DNA of 31,638 bases from an uncultured Anaerolineaceae bacterium (GCA_964420755.1 CAYQUY010000001.1:1-31638), one strand, 5' to 3'. Positions 9,314-16,842 are shown, counted from the stretch's first letter. Program-made: numbers and translations. Notes: generated by a model from the letters alone, not told the origin.

Positions 9314-9490
9314 TCAGAATGGCAGCCTCCCCAGAAAGTCCCCCACCCGCGAGACGATGGCCATGGCCGGCCCGGCGGCCGAGTGCACGATGAGAAAAAC
9401 CCTCATCGCCACCAACGAGATCGACACGGGCAGCAGCATCTTGTAGATGACCTCATCCATATCGCGCGCGGCGGCAATTTGGTGTGTCAT
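9314..9490 (-). CDS. 58-aa small hydrophobic protein (not in ORF track)
   Basis: MTHQIAAARDMDEVIYKMLLPVSISLVAMRVFLIVHSAAGPAMAIVSRVGDFLGRLPF*, preceded by AAGAAGGGAG-CACCTC-ATG. Confidence 0.6.
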   Translation of the reverse strand: MTHQIAAARDMDEVIYKMLLPVSISLVAMRVFLIVHSAAGPAMAIVSRVGDFLGRLPF

Positions 9491-9825
9491 GAGGTGCTCC
9501 CTTCTTGAGAAGATGTTCTGCCGCTCGTGGGTCTCTGCATCAGCCTGTCGAAGACGCCTTCGCCAGCGAGATCGCTGCCCTCACAGGGTTCCTTCAACAC
9601 ACTCCCGGTAGAGTTTGCGCTCCCGTCACGTCCATGGCACAATGTCGAAGATTGTCGGGAAATGCCACCACCAGGGGGAAGATTCCCATTCCTCTCCTGA
9701 GCCTGCCTCGAAATCCTGAATGCCGCTCGCCTGCGCAGGTGGCCTGCCTCACCTTGCCTTTCGCGCAAGTACCACCGCTCTCCGATCTCAACCCTGGCGA
9801 GCGGAGATACTGCCTGAGCAGCTAG

Positions 9826-11082
9826 ATGACCAGCATGCCCCACACGACGGAGCCGGCCAAGAGAACCCACGCCAACGCCCAGCTGGGTCTCTTCCTGACC
9901 GCGATGTTCTTCGTCGAAGCCTCCCGCAGCATGACGACGGTCCAGGTGCCTGTCTACCTGCGCGAGCTGGGCGCCGACATCCGTCAGATCGGGCTGTTCT
10001 TCACCCTCTCGCTGATCTTCCCGCTCCTGCTTCGCGTGTTTGGCGGGTGGGTTTCCGACTCGATCGGCCGCCTGAAGGCCATGCTTATCGGCAGCCTCGC
10101 CGGGGTGCTCACCTATGTGGCCTTCGCCGTCTCGGCGAGTTGGCAGATGGCGATTCTGGCCCCCGCCCTCCTGGCCGTGGCGACAGCCCTCACCATCCCT
10201 TCCTATTACGCTTACATTGCCGACCATACCAGCGACACCAACCGTGGCCGGGTGTACGGCCTGGCGGAGACCGCCCGCACCTTGGCCTGGATCTTCAGCC
10301 CTCCGTTTGGGGGCATGGTTGGGCAGAGGCTGGGGTATCGCTGGATGTTCGCCGCAGCCGCCCTGACCGCCGCCTTGGCTGGTCTCATCTTCCTGGTGGT
10401 GCAGCGCGCCACACGCCTGCAGCAGTCGGGGCCCCAGGCAAAGGCCGATCTGGCTTCGCTGCGCAGCTCCCTGGGCCAGATGTTCACCCTCGCCATATCC
10501 GGTGGTCTGATCACGTGGCTCCTTATCACCGACGGGATCAGGGACAGCGCCATGAGGCTGTCGTTCGATCTGATGCCCGTCTACCTCACCGACATCGCCG
10601 CCCTCACCAAGCAACAGATCGGTCTGCTGGATGGCATCTTTGGCATCGCCTGGGTCGCCACCAGCTATCCGGCCGGTTGGCTCGTCGACAAGACTAGCGA
10701 ACGGCTCTGCATTGTCCTGGGGACCCTGATTCAACTCGCCTCCCAGGTCGTCTTTGTGCTGGCCGCGAGCTTCCAGGGATTCGCTGCTTCGTGGATCCTG
10801 CTGGGGGTCGGCGGGGCGCTCCTTGAACCAGCCTTCAGTTCCCTCGTCGCCAGAGGGGTTCCGAAAGAAGTCCGAGGCATCGTGTACGGCCTGCTGGCCA
10901 CCAGCCTGGGCCTGGTCACCCTGCCCTTCCCGTGGATCGGGGGCCAGCTGTGGGGACTCCTCGGCCCCAGGGCGCCCTTCATCATCACCGTAGCTGCCGG
11001 CAGCCTGACCATCCTTCCGGCGTGGAGAAAGCTGGTCGTCCCGCCCAGAGAAGCCGCGGCTGAGGCAAGGGCCGAGGGCTGA
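9826..11082 (+). CDS. MFS transporter
   Basis: About 12 TM segments; motif A-like GGWVSDSIGRLK and AGWLVDKTSER. Confidence 0.9.
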   Translation: MTSMPHTTEPAKRTHANAQLGLFLTAMFFVEASRSMTTVQVPVYLRELGADIRQIGLFFTLSLIFPLLLRVFGGWVSDSIGRLKAMLIGSLAGVLTYVAFAVSASWQMAILAPALLAVATALTIPSYYAYIADHTSDTNRGRVYGLAETARTLAWIFSPPFGGMVGQRLGYRWMFAAAALTAALAGLIFLVVQRATRLQQSGPQAKADLASLRSSLGQMFTLAISGGLITWLLITDGIRDSAMRLSFDLMPVYLTDIAALTKQQIGLLDGIFGIAWVATSYPAGWLVDKTSERLCIVLGTLIQLASQVVFVLAASFQGFAASWILLGVGGALLEPAFSSLVARGVPKEVRGIVYGLLATSLGLVTLPFPWIGGQLWGLLGPRAPFIITVAAGSLTILPAWRKLVVPPREAAAEARAEG

Positions 11083-11240
11083 GACATCCATTCGCTCACC
11101 GGTCCGCATCCGGCGACGCCCTGCCAGGAACACAGGCCCGACCCACGGCCAGGCGCGCCTGTGCTGGCCCACAAAGAAAGCGCCGTTGTTGCGGGCTGAC
11201 TCCCCCAAGTGCGTCGCTTGGCCTTTGCGGCGGATCGTGT

Positions 11241-11531
11241 TCATGCGGCCCGCTTTTCCCTCAGGCAGAATGGAGCCGATTGCAGTCCTTCGGCGGGACT
11301 TGGCACCTGCGAACGCAGCTTCGCCTCCTCCATGCTCTCGACATGCTGGTAGACACACTTCGCAAACTCCTCGAACGTGTCCACCCTCAGCGCGGTCAGA
11401 GCTTCACGCAGGCTGGGCGAGAAGTCATACTCGGCCAGGACCTCCCCGATCCGGCCCTCACGGAAAGCTTGTGCGACGCCAGGATCGATCGCGGACCTTC
11501 CCAGCAGTTGGTTAAGCGCCTTCATAGACAT
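11241..11531 (-). CDS. 96-aa protein with weak NHLP-clan/Os1348-like leader resemblance
   Basis: Strong RBS GAGGAGGTGCTCC-ATG; MSMKALNQLLGRSAIDPGVAQAF...LAEYDFSPSLREAL resembles the L-gR-xx-DP...Y-dL pattern of Nif11/Os1348-type leaders. ORF is solid, family call is tentative. Confidence 0.6.
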   Translation of the reverse strand: MSMKALNQLLGRSAIDPGVAQAFREGRIGEVLAEYDFSPSLREALTALRVDTFEEFAKCVYQHVESMEEAKLRSQVPSPAEGLQSAPFCLREKRAA

Positions 11532-11569
11532 GGAGCACCTCCTCATGCATTCGTTCTCTCTCCACCCAG

Positions 11570-11600
11570 AAAACCAAAGGCAGCGACTTTCATCGCTGCC
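11570..11600 (-). terminator. Rho-independent terminator between the 15-aa ORF and the 96-aa gene
   Basis: GGCAGCGA-TGAAAG-TCGCTGCC perfect 8-bp stem followed by TTTGGTTTT on the minus strand. Confidence 0.75.
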
Positions 11601-11647
11601 CCGGGGACAAGGTTGAGCCGGGATCAGTTGACTGCAGCAGACTCGGG

Positions 11648-11695
11648 CTAGTGTCCGCCGCCACCGGGCTCGTAGGGGCAACGAGTGCTGGCCAT
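11648..11695 (-). CDS. 15-aa peptide ORF MASTRCPYEPGGGGH (not in ORF track)
   Basis: GGAGG-TTGCG-ATG, 15 codons then TAG; the terminator stem begins 47 nt after the stop. Confidence 0.55.
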   Translation of the reverse strand: MASTRCPYEPGGGGH

Positions 11696-12077
11696 CGCAA
11701 CCTCCGTGTGATTTGTGCCCACTCAGTAGGAGACTACTACACCAACCCTCAAGATTCCCTTAGCTTCGGGGAACAGGGAGACGATTGAAGACTGACCCGG
11801 CTCCAGTTGCTGCATCCACAGTCGAGCAGGAGCGTGGCTTTCCGGAACCCAGGAGGTTGCTGGGGAAGTCTTGCGTGTGGAGAGGGATCTGTGCGCCCGA
11901 GGGTTAGGGCAGGGCCTCAGCCACCCCGGATGTGGTCCTCCCCGTCTTTCGTCACACCTTCTCGGGAGGATGGGCTAGTCAACAGTCACCTCGGTTGGGT
12001 GCTGAAAGGCCCTCTATCTGAGAGAGGATGGGACCCCGCTGTGCAGATGCGGAGGAGATGCCGGGAAGCGGCGAGGA

Positions 12078-15000
12078 TCAACGGATCAGTCGGGCATACG
12101 CCTCGCGGAGAGGTTCGGGGGGATCCAGGCCGAGCTCATCCGCCAACCGGTGGACGTACTGGCGGTAGTGCCCCACCGCCTCGCTTCTACGCCCCAATTG
12201 CCCCAGGACCTCGAGGTAGTGCAGGTTGAGGTCATCCCGAAGTGGATCGATCTGCAAAGCCTGACGAAAGCTGTTGACAGCCTGCTGCGGCTGCCCGCGC
12301 GCCAGCGCTTCATCGGCATGGTGCGTGAGAAGCTGGAGGAAATCTCCCTCCAGCTGGCGGCGCCGCTCCACAACCCACTCCGAGGCATACTCAGGCAGAA
12401 AGCTGCCACCGCACACGTTAACCGCCTCGGTCAGCGCAAAGAACCGGCGCGGGTCACCCGGCGGCATCGCCATGGCCACACTGGAAGCGTGCTCGAACTC
12501 GGCCACATCGTACTCGATCGCGTACTCTGGGTTGACCGCATAGACCGAGCCCTCGATGCGGATCATGTCCTTTGACAGGGCCCGACGGAGACTGTGGATC
12601 GCGGTGTACAGGCTTGAGACCTGGCGGCCAGGCGGGGATTCGAGCCAGAAGGTCTCTAGGAGCACGTCGCGTTCAACCTCCTTCCGATCCGTCAGGAAGA
12701 AGAGAACCTGCTTCGGAAGGGGTTCGAGGTCGGACACGCGCCTGCCCTCAAACCGAAGCTCTGAAGGCCCGAAGGCTTTCACCAGAAGGTGCCGCTTCTT
12801 ACTGGGCATCTCGGACTTCTCTTCATACATCCGCGCCATGGCGCGCATGATATCGACCCGCTGGAGGACCACCGCAAGGTGGGGACTCCCCTCGAAGTCC
12901 TGGCGAGCAAACTCGCGCATGCCCTCGTGGTACATCATCTCCCCGCCGAGGAACTGCTCCACGCCGTGGCTCCGTGCCCATGCCAACGCTTCCTCCAGGT
13001 GGCCGCGGGCCTCCTCCCGGTTTCCGGTAGCCAGAGCGGCCTGTGCCAGGAAGTACAGGATCAGAGCCTTCTCGCTCGCGCGCAGCCCGCCCTGCTTCTG
13101 CCGCAGAATCTCCATCAGCCTGAGCGTGGCGCTCGAGGGGGAGGCAGCGATGGACAGGGCCGCCAGTTGGATGTCCACCGCAGCCGGGCGTTCCTTTGCG
13201 CTGTCGAGTGCCCTGGCCCGCTCCAGCCACTCGTGCGGCAGGGTGCCTGTGCCGCAGCGACGATGGAGGACGCTCGTCTGGGTGTAGCCATATCGCAGGA
13301 GGTCGACACTGCCCAGGCGCGCCGCCAGCCTCAGACCCTGCTCATAAAGCGCGGCGGTCTGAAACGGGAGACCCAGGTCGCAGAACAGGTCCGCCTGGCC
13401 AAATAGAATGCTAGCTTCGAGACGTAGGTTTGCAGCCCGATGGGCGCACTCAAGTCCCTCCTCGAACATTCGAAGCGCGTGGTCGTAACGCCCCTCAAGG
13501 TAGGCTGTCATCGCAAGGTTATTGAACGAGATGGCTAGTGGAAAGGGCGATCCAATCTGGGCCAGGATCTCATGCGCCCTCAAGTTTGCGGCCTGGACTT
13601 CCAGCGGCTTGCCGAGGGCGCTCTGGATCGGCAGCAGATCGTTGAGGACTAGAGCCAGTGTGAAGCGATCATTGGCCCGCTCCAAGAGCCTGACCGCCCG
13701 CAAGATGAGCCGTTCCGCCTCCTGGACATCTCCTCCCGACGCGTAGATGGCCCGTCCTTTCAACCGGAGGCACGTGGCTCTACGCGCCAGATTCCCACTC
13801 CGCGGTAGCAGTCGCTCTGCCTCCCCCGCTGCCTGTATCACCTCCTCATTGCGTCCTCGCTGAAGCGCAATGAGACCTCGAACGGTCCAAGCTCGGGCCC
13901 ACATGGCAGGATTCGACTTCCCTCGCCGAAGCATGTCGAAGGCCTTCCCCGCAGCCTCGTCGGCCTTGTCCAGGTTAGCCTGGTCTGCGTAGGTTGTCGC
14001 AAGGTAGAGGAACAGACCAGGCGCTGCCACGCCCGCCTCATCGAGGCGGCTCCCCCAAACCTCGAGCGTCTGCGTCCTCCCCCGTTCGAACATCGCTGGC
14101 GCCTCCCTCTCCGCCAGTGCAGCAGCGCGCCGGGGCGCGCCTGCCGCCAGGTACAGCTCGACAGCCTCCTCCGGAGAGCCGTGGCCCGCTAGGTACCGAG
14201 CGGCCCGAATCCGCAGGGACCGCAGACGCTTCGGATCCTTGCCCGCCAGGGTTTCGATCAGGAACTGACGGAGTTGAGGGTGGTATTCGAACGTCCTCGG
14301 GACCTGGTCGGTGGCGACCACGAATAGCCCGTCGCGCAGAAGACGGGCCAGAAAGCGCTGGCTGTCCTGGCGTTGGAGGACGCAGTCGCAGCCCTCCACG
14401 GTCATCACCGGCAGCACAGACGATTCCAGCGTGAAGCGGTACACATCGTCCGGCAGATGCCCAAGGACCACCGCCGCCAGGTACTCGTAGACCATCGGCC
14501 GGGTCCGCTGCGCCAGGACCTCCGAGCCCGTACCCGACATCGTGGCCGAGAGGAGGATTCCGGAGATCCAGCCCTGAGTCTCCCGCAGCAATCGCGCGGT
14601 TTCGGCCTCCGGGAGCTCGGCGCCCAGCCGCTTCCGGGCAAGGGCCCTGAGCTCGTCGCTGGTGAGGGCCAGATCGTTTGGGCCGATGCCAGCCATCTCG
14701 GCATCGACGACCAGCTTGGCCAGCGACAACTCGGGCAGCTGCCTACCCGCCGCCAGAAGGGTCACATGGCTGGGCTGCTCCTGCAGGAACGCGTTGAAGA
14801 ACGCCATCACCGCATCGGAGGGATTCACCCGGTGCAAGTCATCGAGTGCAATGACGAATGGCTCGCTGATCCGGGACTCGATGACGTCGACGAAGGCCCG
14901 GGCCAGGGCCTCGGGCGCGGCCCCCGAAAGGGCTGCCAGGTCCGGCTGCCCCCGAAGGCGGCGGAAGCGCTTCTGCAGCGAGGCGGCCAGCACGCTGGCC

Positions 15001-15239
15001 AGGCGCATCACGTCGCAGTCCGCCTCAGTCAGCCGAACCCAGCATACCGGCAAATCGGTGTGCGCCCCAAAGTCCGCCAGAAGGGTGCTCTTGCCGTAAC
15101 CCGGCGGAGCAATGACCACAATCAGCTTGCGGGGAAGATTGGCGTGGATTTGATCGACGAGCCGTTCCCGGTGGAGTTTCGTCCGATCAAAGGTGAGTGG
15201 GCCGATGGCGTGCCCGAACTGCGAAGTTGGTGAGGCCAT
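12078..15239 (-). CDS. MalT-like STAND ATPase-TPR-wHTH/BTAD (SARP-type) transcriptional regulator
   Basis: RERLVDQI...VVIAPPGYGKSTLL Walker A, IALDDLH Walker B, FEYHPQLRQFL, TPR-like repeats, and C-terminal VKAFG...DVAEFE...FLPEYASEWVVERR...DPLRDDL BTAD pattern. Confidence 0.9.
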   Translation of the reverse strand: MASPTSQFGHAIGPLTFDRTKLHRERLVDQIHANLPRKLIVVIAPPGYGKSTLLADFGAHTDLPVCWVRLTEADCDVMRLASVLAASLQKRFRRLRGQPDLAALSGAAPEALARAFVDVIESRISEPFVIALDDLHRVNPSDAVMAFFNAFLQEQPSHVTLLAAGRQLPELSLAKLVVDAEMAGIGPNDLALTSDELRALARKRLGAELPEAETARLLRETQGWISGILLSATMSGTGSEVLAQRTRPMVYEYLAAVVLGHLPDDVYRFTLESSVLPVMTVEGCDCVLQRQDSQRFLARLLRDGLFVVATDQVPRTFEYHPQLRQFLIETLAGKDPKRLRSLRIRAARYLAGHGSPEEAVELYLAAGAPRRAAALAEREAPAMFERGRTQTLEVWGSRLDEAGVAAPGLFLYLATTYADQANLDKADEAAGKAFDMLRRGKSNPAMWARAWTVRGLIALQRGRNEEVIQAAGEAERLLPRSGNLARRATCLRLKGRAIYASGGDVQEAERLILRAVRLLERANDRFTLALVLNDLLPIQSALGKPLEVQAANLRAHEILAQIGSPFPLAISFNNLAMTAYLEGRYDHALRMFEEGLECAHRAANLRLEASILFGQADLFCDLGLPFQTAALYEQGLRLAARLGSVDLLRYGYTQTSVLHRRCGTGTLPHEWLERARALDSAKERPAAVDIQLAALSIAASPSSATLRLMEILRQKQGGLRASEKALILYFLAQAALATGNREEARGHLEEALAWARSHGVEQFLGGEMMYHEGMREFARQDFEGSPHLAVVLQRVDIMRAMARMYEEKSEMPSKKRHLLVKAFGPSELRFEGRRVSDLEPLPKQVLFFLTDRKEVERDVLLETFWLESPPGRQVSSLYTAIHSLRRALSKDMIRIEGSVYAVNPEYAIEYDVAEFEHASSVAMAMPPGDPRRFFALTEAVNVCGGSFLPEYASEWVVERRRQLEGDFLQLLTHHADEALARGQPQQAVNSFRQALQIDPLRDDLNLHYLEVLGQLGRRSEAVGHYRQYVHRLADELGLDPPEPLREAYARLIR

Positions 15240-15410: not shown

Positions 15411-15440
15411 TGGACAAAGCCTACCATTTTATGCTAGTGT
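15411..15440 (+). promoter_or_regulatory. Candidate promoter upstream of the permease remnant / ROK gene
   Basis: TGGACA-N18-TAGTGT with an extended -10 TG-C. Confidence 0.35.
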
Positions 15441-15491
15441 TCTGTTGAGATGCCCATGACACCTTCGCCAAATCCTCCGATCCGGGGACAG

Positions 15492-15653
15492 CTCCTGCCG
15501 CTTGGGCTCGCCATGCTGAATATGAAGAACACCTCCAACTGAGGCCAGACAATGACGGGCACTATCCTGATCTCCCTGCCCGTGATCGCCGTCATCCTGC
15601 CCATGCAGCGGCGGTTGATCGCCGGCGTGACCGCCGGAGCGGTGAAGGAATGA
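15492..15653 (+). pseudogene. C-terminal remnant of a MalG-type carbohydrate ABC permease
   Basis: LLPLGLAMLNMKNTSN*GQTMTGTILISLPVIAVILPMQRRLIAGVTAGAVKE* matches the MalG C-terminus (LPvGL...NWG.lMA...SLP...Q+.fi.G.tAGAVK); in-frame TGA at 15540-42 where Trp is expected; its stop overlaps the ROK start (ATGA). Confidence 0.8.
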
Positions 15654-16576
15654 TCGCCGGTGTCGACATCAGCAGGACCAGGATTACCGTCGGCATGGTT
15701 GATGAGTCCGGCCGGGTCCTGGCTCGCGCCGAGTGCCCCACGGCGGCCGAGCGCGGCCCGGCCGATGGGCTTGATCGGATCCGCACCATGATCGAGGAGA
15801 CCCGGCTGCAGGGCGACGAGGGCTTGTTCGGCATCGGCGTCGGTTGCACCGGGCCCGTCGACCCCACCACCGGCATGATCGGCAACGTGGAGTTCCTCCC
15901 GGGCTGGCAAGGCGCGAATCCGGTGGAGGCGCTCGTCTCCCGTTTCTACCTTCCGGTGGCGATCGAGAACGCCGCCGATGCCGGCGCCCTGGGCGAAGCC
16001 ATCTGGGGTTCGGGCCGGGGTGTGAACCGGTTCATCTATGTGACCATCGGCGCCGGCATCGGCGGCGGCGTGGTCCTGGATGGGCAACTCTACCGCGGCG
16101 TCGAGGGCGCCCACCCCGAGATCGGCCATCATGTCATCGATCCTTCCGGACCGGCCTGCTACTGTGGCGCACGTGGCTGCTGGGAGAGCCTGGCCAGCGG
16201 CTCGGCGATGGAGCGCTGGGCGGAGGACAACCCCCAGCCCGGACAGCCAGAGGGTGAAAGGCTGGACGCCGCAACCATCTGCGCCGCCGCCCAACGCGGC
16301 GAGGCATGGGCGCAGCCCGCGGTCGACCGGATCGGGACTTACCTCGGCCTGGGTCTGGCCAATCTCATCACCCTCTTCACCCCTGAAGTGATCGCATTGG
16401 CGGGCGGGTTGATGCGCAGCCACCTTCTCTTCTGGGATCGGATACAGGAGACCATCCGCACCACCTGCGGCCTGGTTTCGTATCAGAAGACCCGCTTGAC
16501 GCCCGCGGCGCTCGGCCCCGAGGCGGGCGTGGTTGGCGCCGCGTGCGTCTGGCTCTATCGCTTCAGGACGCTGTGA
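15650..16576 (+). CDS. ROK family sugar kinase
   Basis: GVDISRT, GIGVGCTGPVD, ENAADAGALGE, VTIGAGIGGG, EIGHH and CYCGARGCWE motifs. Confidence 0.93.
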   Translation: MIAGVDISRTRITVGMVDESGRVLARAECPTAAERGPADGLDRIRTMIEETRLQGDEGLFGIGVGCTGPVDPTTGMIGNVEFLPGWQGANPVEALVSRFYLPVAIENAADAGALGEAIWGSGRGVNRFIYVTIGAGIGGGVVLDGQLYRGVEGAHPEIGHHVIDPSGPACYCGARGCWESLASGSAMERWAEDNPQPGQPEGERLDAATICAAAQRGEAWAQPAVDRIGTYLGLGLANLITLFTPEVIALAGGLMRSHLLFWDRIQETIRTTCGLVSYQKTRLTPAALGPEAGVVGAACVWLYRFRTL

Positions 16577-16842
16577 CGATGCCAGCCAGCACCCTCGCCG
16601 CGACACCACACCTCTGCGACATCCTTGCCCAGCCGGAGGCCCTGGAGAGGATCCCGGCTGGCTTCACCGACCGCAAGGATCCGCCAGCGTTCGCCCACTA
16701 AGCGACGACGGCGTGTCAACTTGCACTGAGAGTTCCTCGTGGCGGTTGACCACTAGCGGCAAGACGACCTCCGGAAACGGTAAGGTCAGGCGGCCCACAT
16801 GGAGTCCGGCGCCAAGTGAGCAGAAGGAGAGGAAGGAGAGCG

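Follow-up and report, generated by a model that had tools for sequence, protein, structure and literature searches.

In the AfsR-afsS system of Streptomyces coelicolor, a regulator with SARP, STAND ATPase and TPR domains is encoded directly upstream of, and on the same strand as, a small open reading frame (ORF), and the afsS promoter carries two 11-bp direct repeats that overlap the -35 region and lie 8 bp from a poor -10 element (PMC10936776). In SARP target promoters, direct repeats are spaced by 11 or 22 bp and the one on the 3' side stands 8 bp away from the -10; AfsR activates afsS through such a site, the 22-bp afs box (PMC10936776). In attenuators of the trpL type a short ORF led by a Shine-Dalgarno (SD) sequence precedes an intrinsic terminator and then a structural gene, and the alternative pairing involves the translated region. 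The trpL attenuator of Sinorhizobium meliloti yields a short terminated RNA that still encodes the peptide, and both this RNA, rnTrpL, and the 14-residue peptide, peTrpL, act in trans (PMC6614838, PMC7298713). Here we describe a locus with features of both systems on the minus strand of a 31,638-nt stretch of DNA from an uncultured Anaerolineaceae bacterium (GCA_964420755.1 CAYQUY010000001.1:1-31638, the whole of which is called the window below). A large SARP regulator of 1053 residues is followed by a 15-codon micro-ORF, an intrinsic terminator and the gene of a 96-residue helical protein. The reading we favour, with a probability of roughly 0.55, is an AfsR/afsS-like unit of activator plus small gene in which the micro-ORF would act as a leader-peptide attenuator gating read-through of the terminator.

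The likeness to AfsR-afsS covers the domain content of the regulator, the small ORF directly downstream on the same strand, the promoter with two 11-bp direct repeats, and the internal repeats found in some micro-ORF peptides, as in AfsS. Unlike AfsR, which is ordered SARP-NOD-TPR, the window regulator is ordered ATPase-TPR-SARP, and its host belongs to the Chloroflexota, not the Actinomycetota. The peptides of the window family are Gly-rich and 9-24 residues long, whereas AfsS has 63 residues, and no sequence kinship between them is claimed; furthermore, in the module described here a terminator and a second gene come after the small ORF. With trpL-type attenuators the module shares the succession of short SD-led ORF, intrinsic terminator and structural gene, together with a predicted alternative pairing that involves the translated region, and with S. 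meliloti trpL the short terminated RNA that would still encode the peptide, for which a dual role is likewise possible. It differs in that the candidate anti-terminator strand is part of the ORF itself (codons 4-7), so that ribosome occupancy should favour termination and not relieve it. It also differs in that its conserved codons have no evident link to the regulated gene, in having a predicted activator-dependent promoter of its own, and in being known from sequence alone, a search for RNA-seq or metatranscriptome runs having listed only freshwater-metagenome DNA runs. Our search of the SARP literature returned only actinomycete work, and nothing describing a module of regulator, micro-ORF, terminator and small protein.

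A conserved micro-ORF between regulator and small gene

The stop codon of the regulator is followed by a gap of 546 nt that holds the micro-ORF and the terminator hairpin. The micro-ORF (11648..11705 including its SD, minus strand) has the SD GGAGG at 11705..11701, a 5-nt spacer and an ATG at 11695, and runs for 15 codons to a TAG at 11650..11648, giving the product MASTRCPYEPGGGGH. The corresponding gaps were read first in 19 loci encoding regulator and small protein, from genomes of the family. A scan with one genome per species, in which an 11-member alignment of the small protein was the query, gave 75 further loci, labelled Anaerolineaceae, Anaerolineales or Chloroflexota metagenome-assembled genomes. 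The ordered set of features stands beside orthologous regulators in 18 of the 19 loci examined first and in most of about 65 further loci, a recurrence which indicates that the order is more than chance.

Statistics on the micro-ORF refer to 52 distinct nucleotide versions from Anaerolineales genomes. In these an SD-led ATG at a fixed place opens a frame of 9-24 codons, of the type M-x-R-C-P-x-x-G-G-G-G; the peptides of relatives include MAITRCPEDGGGGGH, MHRCPKTGGGSS, MTKARCPRDFGLSGG and MLALRCPKDGGGSCRAPKDGGGSC. Gly makes up 33% of the residues, in runs of 3-5 and with all four Gly codons in use, and the GG dinucleotide falls at codon positions 1-2 in 220 instances, compared with 32 and 74 in the other two phases. 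The stretch from C-P to the Gly run is hypervariable, and certain lineages retain no more than M-x-x-D-P-V-G-G-R. Internal repeats are present in the peptide of locus L019 (RCPKDGGGSC and RAPKDGGGSC), where they differ at 8 nt, 6 of which are synonymous third positions, and in that of L023, where the same pattern is seen and the differences are almost all at synonymous third positions. By its conservation and its reading phase, the micro-ORF is shown to be a real gene, which is very probably translated. At a further locus (L084) the micro-ORF is present twice in tandem, as MKSPRDQGVGSM in both cases, at a distance of ~100 nt, and both copies have an SD to themselves, which suggests a duplication of the leader.

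These features make it very unlikely that the region acts as a non-coding structured RNA or small RNA with an ORF of no importance to it. The SD-spacer segment GGAGGUUGCC and the hairpin arm are strongly conserved in their nucleotides, which would suit such an RNA, but the ATG is at optimal distance from a canonical SD in all 52 sequences, the frame invariably runs on to its stop at 9-24 codons in spite of insertions and deletions, and the phase of GGN leaves third positions free. In addition, the whole window has no Rfam match at the gathering threshold, and the only helix that RNAalifold recovers from the leaders is that of the terminator.

The terminator and a candidate anti-terminator

An intrinsic terminator hairpin (11602..11570, minus strand) separates the micro-ORF from the small gene and is the sole terminator-like site in 11100..12300. 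Its stem, GGCAGCGA against TCGCTGCC, is made by a 5' arm GGGGCAGCGA (11602..11593) and, after a loop, a 3' arm (11586..11579), which is followed by the U-tract TTTGGTTTT (11578..11570). Hairpin and U-tract are present in 18 of the 19 loci, where the 5' arm begins 61-89 nt upstream of the small gene's ATG, and within genomes the hairpin motif is found at modules only, bar a few chance matches that form no hairpin. In an alignment of 41 leaders (A3) the 5' arm sequence GGCAGCG is invariant and usually extended (AGGC); the 3' arm varies, mostly by changes that keep G-U pairs. A sigma-54 reading of the TGGCAG in this arm was rejected by eye, as the GG-N10-GC spacing is wrong.

The Arg-Cys-Pro codons of the micro-ORF (CGY UGY CC) read like the 3' arm of the terminator and are complementary to its 5' arm, and codons 4-7 of the window micro-ORF, UCGUUGCCCC (11684..11675, minus strand), are on the evidence of pairing and folding a candidate anti-terminator strand. 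When pairing is counted by script for each cell of A3, these codons match the 5' arm in 231 of 252 cells (92%), equalling the outer stem of the terminator itself (263 of 286), and the figure falls to 32-51% if the partner is shifted along by 1-3 nt. At least 6 of the 7 pairs can form in 32 of the 41 leaders, and if the RNA is cut before the 3' arm, the 5' arm pairs with the Arg-Cys-Pro codons in the minimum-energy fold of 24 of the 41. For the window, the minimum-energy fold of the RNA cut in this way pairs UCGUUGCCCC with GGGGCAGCGA around a nested hairpin of the Gly run, which (11661..11653) can pair with 11642..11634, and the full-length RNA folds to form the terminator. RNAalifold, applied to all 41 leaders, recovers only the outer stem of the terminator, the region from stop codon to hairpin being too variable to align. 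Codon choice is biased at the same place. In 31 distinct ORFs with the R-C motif, the Arg is CGY in 30, compared with a CGY share of 44% among the Arg codons of the adjacent regulator genes, and the preceding codon is GCU in 11, compared with a 15% share of GCU among Ala codons; both choices lengthen the pairing with the 5' arm of the hairpin.

These constraints bear on an alternative that we regard as possible rather than probable, namely that the micro-ORF mainly encodes a functional intracellular micropeptide, which would be an effector in the manner of AfsS or would bind the TPR domain as its ligand or partner, and that the terminator only sets a high ratio of peptide to small protein, with no translation-dependent switch. 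The conservation at the amino-acid level suits this view, as do the mainly synonymous differences between the L019 and L023 repeats and the persistence of C-P and the Gly run at loci with weakened RNA pairing (CAT TGC in L079, CGA TGC in L065). So too do the AfsR-afsS-like layout of a large SARP beside a small repeat-containing ORF and the different peptides of paralogous modules in one genome. However, a micropeptide leaves unexplained why the 5' arm is invariant and complementary to the Arg-Cys-Pro codons, why the Arg is restricted to CGY, and why a promoterless small gene lies at a fixed short distance behind a terminator. The hypervariable interval between C-P and the Gly run, and the lineages that retain only M-x-x-D-P-V-G-G-R, are further points against it.

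A classical amino-acid attenuator, in which the Gly run provides the regulatory codons and stalling at low charged tRNA-Gly would free a post-stop segment as partner of the anti-terminator, is improbable. Gly is abundant, always in frame and in runs, and in the window and several GC-rich loci GCGGCGGAC of the Gly run pairs with GUCUGCUGC, a C-rich segment just past the stop codon in which UGCUGC, as read from the sequence, would be able to pair with GCAGCG. Yet AT-rich loci (L022 and L026, for example) have not kept this post-stop partner, nothing evident connects the downstream genes with glycine, a promoter box found next to gcvPB in the source genome (see below) is not kept in relatives, and the conserved Arg-Cys-Pro would be left unexplained.

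The regulator and its predicted promoter

The regulator (15239..12078, minus strand, 1053 residues) was assigned by Pfam, NCBIfam and PDB matches. Pfam places AAA_16/AAA_22 at the N-terminus (AAA_16 E=6.8e-8), TPR repeats in mid-protein and BTAD at residues 911-1051 (E=6e-20), from which the ATPase occupies residues 26-170, the TPR region about 410-760 and the SARP domain 812-1052. A Walker A motif, GYGKST, is present at residues 47-52, and the combination of an AAA_16/NB-ARC-type P-loop NTPase with a C-terminal repeat sensor is that of a STAND NTPase. The NCBIfam MalT model matches residues 20-514 (E=2e-56) under its equivalog cut-off, and on this score the protein is a relative of MalT, not MalT. 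Residues 812-1052 are covered by the NCBIfam AfsR model, and the C-terminal ~230 residues (about 824-1052) align to the SARP domain of AfsR (PDB 8hvr, E=6.8e-13) and also to EmbR (PDB 2fez, E=3.5e-8), giving the OmpR-type winged helix followed by a BTAD helical domain that defines the SARP family. The AfsR-type order, with SARP N-terminal and then NOD/STAND and TPR, is not found, and by its domain matches the regulator is a large SARP with permuted domain order. Orthologues at 41-61% identity are present in 23 of the 24 genera of the family.

Directly upstream of the micro-ORF are two direct repeats with an 11-bp period, CTAAGGGAATC (11763..11753) and TTGAGGGTTGG (11752..11742), which form a probable binding site for the regulator (11742..11763, minus strand). 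They are a 'type B' variant of the family consensus GTTnAGAATCC GTTGAGAG, and a pattern search finds this box once in the window. Repeat-anchored alignments place a weak -10, TAGTCT (11736..11731, minus strand), 9 nt past the TTGAGGG heptamer, and a conserved GAGTGGG (11718..11724, minus strand) at the inferred transcription start. The family promoter consensus reads cGTTnAGAATCC GTTGAGAG N8 TAnnnT N7 GAGTGG, followed by 12-18 nt to the SD, and among 55 distinct loci TTGAG-N6-TTGAG with at most 3 mismatches lies at a fixed distance from the micro-ORF in 51. There is no -35 hexamer and no sigma-70 consensus promoter in 11100..12300, as would be expected of an activator-dependent promoter. With repeats at an 11-bp period that stand 8 bp (family) or 9 bp (window) from the -10, the site has the layout of a SARP promoter. 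The SARP domain of the regulator would thus be predicted to bind the repeats at 11763..11742, with transcription starting near G11724, and the position of this SARP-box promoter directly upstream of the micro-ORF indicates that the regulator very probably drives it.

A third look-alike of the repeat box is present in the source genome (L112, G000:C114:5021-5038, minus strand; GTTGAGAATCC GTTCAGG N9 TATACT), in the gap after, and antisense to, gcvPB, which encodes a subunit of glycine dehydrogenase. A link to a glycine-metabolism regulon was dropped, as the second-site boxes of ten related genomes lie in unrelated contexts.

A model for the module

The locus has the parts of a leader attenuator, a short translated ORF before an intrinsic terminator before a regulated gene, where translation is deduced from SD, phase and conservation. 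In the favoured reading, the SARP domain would recruit RNA polymerase to the repeat-box promoter and the transcript would be translated from the ATG at 11695. A ribosome on the micro-ORF would mask codons 4-7, the terminator would form, and transcription would stop at ~11570, freeing a peptide-coding RNA of ~150 nt. With the micro-ORF unoccupied, the anti-terminator would form instead and the gene of the 96-residue protein would be transcribed. That translation would favour termination is a geometric argument from the position of the pairing strand. As parts of the micro-ORF are conserved at the amino-acid level, its peptide may in addition act in trans, and might then be an effector like AfsS, a ligand of the TPR domain or an arrest peptide.

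The first-pass annotation of the window had reported the regulator, the 15-residue ORF behind GGAGG-N5-ATG, the terminator and the 96-residue ORF with its own ribosome-binding site, all of which we find at the same positions. It had also stated beforehand that a lack of comparable micro-ORFs beside orthologous regulators would count against it, and 52 distinct sequences supply them. Its suggestion that the regulator acts on the adjacent peptide gene is made very probable by the SARP-box promoter directly upstream of the micro-ORF, and its view of the terminator agrees with ours in that the majority of transcripts would be expected to stop behind the peptide gene. The leader-peptide attenuator, which it had offered as an alternative, becomes the favoured explanation on account of the invariant arm complementary to the Arg-Cys-Pro codons and the restriction of the Arg to CGY.

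Several observations weigh against this explanation. An Arg-Cys-Pro partner is missing in 9 of the 41 leaders, and in some of these its place is taken by the SD-spacer sequence GUUGCC or by another segment. Since the 5' arm is invariant, covariation on both sides is not seen, and the pairing is supported by one-sided wobble changes together with codon bias. The window leader, a GC-rich RNA, folds no better than its shuffles (z = 0.46 and -0.63). The conservation of amino acids of the P-K-D-G-G-G type exceeds what a pure sensor of occupancy would need, and no physiological signal ties Gly, Cys or Pro codons to the downstream genes. Finally, the loci share kinship, and the conservation counts overstate their independence.

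The excess of amino-acid conservation leads to a rather doubtful extension of the model, in which the micro-ORF would have two functions, its translation gating the attenuator and the R-C-P-x-D/G-G-G peptide, free or nascent, being itself sensed, for example by the TPR domain of the regulator in a feedback loop, or as a reporter of thiol, metal or haem state. The Arg-Cys-Pro core resembles the Cys-Pro haem-regulatory motif (PMC2742820), a resemblance only. If this dual function were true, two orthogonal sets of regulator, box and peptide per genome would make two insulated channels.

The 96-residue protein

The small gene (11241..11544 including its SD, minus strand) has the SD GAGGAGG at 11544..11538, 6 nt upstream of the ATG, and an ORF at 11531..11241, supported by sequence and family alignment. 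This ORF is contained in a longer TTG frame (11681..11241), yet all 18 homologues start at the same MSM. The gene starts 38 nt past the U-tract with no promoter-like site between, and on this ground would be expressed only through read-through of the terminator. Relatives are found in 23 of 24 genera of the same family, where the regulator gene is next to it, 260-750 bp away, with order and strand unchanged.

The AlphaFold2 model of the protein has five helices and a disordered tail, at a mean confidence (pLDDT) of 74. All 19 small proteins share (L/V)PSPxEGL, a variable charged linker and a C-terminal invariant Ala that is preceded by V/A and usually Q/R (QVA, QAA, RAA; 11241-11300 in the window, columns 76-100 of alignment A1). 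Being conserved at the far end of a disordered linker, this terminus might serve as a ligand for a TPR clamp or as a C-terminal degron. The protein has no Pfam match, and Foldseek against the PDB gives nothing with E below 8. Clusters of the AlphaFold database yield one unnamed relative and a weak LigA-domain match (E=0.011), language-model neighbours include a 'Franean1_4349 family RiPP' cluster and LigA-like clusters, and a word-based homologue search gives 4 unnamed matches.

It is extremely unlikely that the locus serves the synthesis of a ribosomally synthesised and post-translationally modified peptide (RiPP) or peptide signalling, with the 96-residue protein as an NHLP-type precursor, or the micro-ORF as core peptide, and maturation enzymes encoded elsewhere. 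The case for this rests on NF038399 (Os1348 NHLP clan), which matches residues 4-60 at E=1.1e-3, and on the RiPP and LigA-like matches given above. The NF038399 score, however, is 19 bits against a cut-off of 40, only 3 of the 19 members match at E<0.1, and the family alignment reveals no Gly-Gly after the helical domain, the C-terminal part being conserved. Indeed, the full length including the C-terminus is conserved as a folded protein plus tail and not as a hypervariable core, and neither the window nor the 19 related loci encode a maturase, cyclodehydratase, radical SAM enzyme or C39 transporter.

The protein resembles NHLP/Nif11 leaders in being small and all-helical, with about 60 structured residues and a weak profile match. 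It differs in its sub-threshold score, in lacking a Gly-Gly site, a variable core and maturation genes, and in its partner in the commoner form of the module, a pseudo-ImmA (M78 fold without HExxH). Likewise, the locus has in common with RRNPP systems (Rap, NprR, PlcR, PrgX) a TPR regulator encoded beside a short peptide gene. Unlike them, its peptide has no signal sequence or features of export and processing, no Opp-type importer is linked to it in the window, its regulator is of STAND-SARP and not HTH-TPR architecture, and its lineage is not Bacillota. The first-pass annotation was correct that the window holds no modifying enzyme, there being no maturase or transporter of the RiPP kind. 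Three of its other proposals fall with these comparisons. The analogy to RRNPP-type signalling fails on a 15-residue peptide without signal sequence or hydrophobic stretch, and the RiPP-like locus on the missing maturase and transporter and on the actual neighbours in the commoner form (a dead M78 relative, PD40, M23 and an MBL hydrolase). The NHLP-leader label fails on its low score in few members and the missing Gly-Gly cleavage motif.

Two co-resident versions of the module

In the commoner version, type A (14 of the 19 loci), the small gene and the start of the next, for a 168-residue Peptidase_M78 (ImmA/IrrE-like) protein, overlap, and the two are translationally coupled; the operon then continues with a 640-residue PD40 beta-propeller, an M23 peptidase and an MBL-fold hydrolase. 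The M78 relative has no HExxH in any of 12 sequences, where the stretch reads ARETLSAL (L021:6790-7296 and 11 other type A loci, e.g. L036), and from this it is probably a pseudo-protease, without catalytic activity and serving as a binding partner. The M23 family includes Gly-Gly endopeptidases; that the type A operon (L021:7430-11387 and equivalents) has an M23 gene beside a poly-Gly leader peptide may be coincidence. The type A regulator is directly preceded, on its own strand, by a conserved ORF of ~120 residues with no Pfam or NCBIfam match (L020:2625-2990 and 10 other loci); the window does not have it and carries a divergent ROK kinase gene on that side. At two loci (L031 and L032, on G010:C3 and G020:C5) a second, divergent paralogue of the regulator stands in tandem directly upstream of the module regulator, which on G010:C3 is broken by one TAA.

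The window and four other loci (L017, L018, L028 and L034) have none of the M78, PD40, M23 and MBL genes and no conserved downstream neighbour. Their regulators form one clade with support of 100/99, and the five share the variant repeat YTnAGGrAATC YTsAGGG, 9 nt from the -10. This restriction of the variant box to one clade of regulators means that, at the level of sequence, box and regulator co-vary, which supports the inference of binding. Both versions are present in four genomes (G000, G002, G014 and G010), the source genome carrying its type A module on contig C149 (L036), and paralogous modules within one genome have different peptides, all of which suggests two insulated channels. Exact variant boxes in other genera lead to complete modules at L127, L128 and L130; L132 has the variant box and the small gene, but no SD-led micro-ORF or hairpin as defined for the others. 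A search for the type B box at one mismatch gives at most 37 of 98 genomes, an upper bound that includes look-alikes in coding sequence.

The genes that flank the window module, both assigned by Pfam, are a divergent ROK kinase gene upstream of the regulator (15650-16576, plus strand) and, beyond the small gene, a convergent MFS transporter gene (9826..11082, plus strand). Long minus-strand ORFs at 9487-11358 and 15434-16609 are shadow frames of the transporter and kinase genes, respectively, with low-complexity translations rich in Arg, Gly and Ala.

Implications

The module is a real conserved regulatory unit, unreported in the literature searched, which combines a large SARP and an adjacent small gene with a probable leader-peptide attenuator. 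Work on large SARP/STAND regulators has been nearly confined to actinomycetes, in which neither their signals nor the part played by AfsS is clear. The logic of activator, repeat box and tiny gene is found here in another phylum, with permuted domains and with a terminator, predicted to be coupled to translation, added before the output gene. Uncultured hosts limit the immediate impact of this finding, and the sharp constraints on the repeat boxes, the Arg-Cys-Pro codons and the invariant arm permit clean mutants. The conserved genes of 9-24 codons form a family that annotation pipelines have missed, and a family of unannotated 96-residue proteins gains a functional context, as does the pseudo-ImmA of the commoner version. 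Two paralogous sets that reside in the same genome with different boxes provide a natural test of the specificity between regulator and operator.

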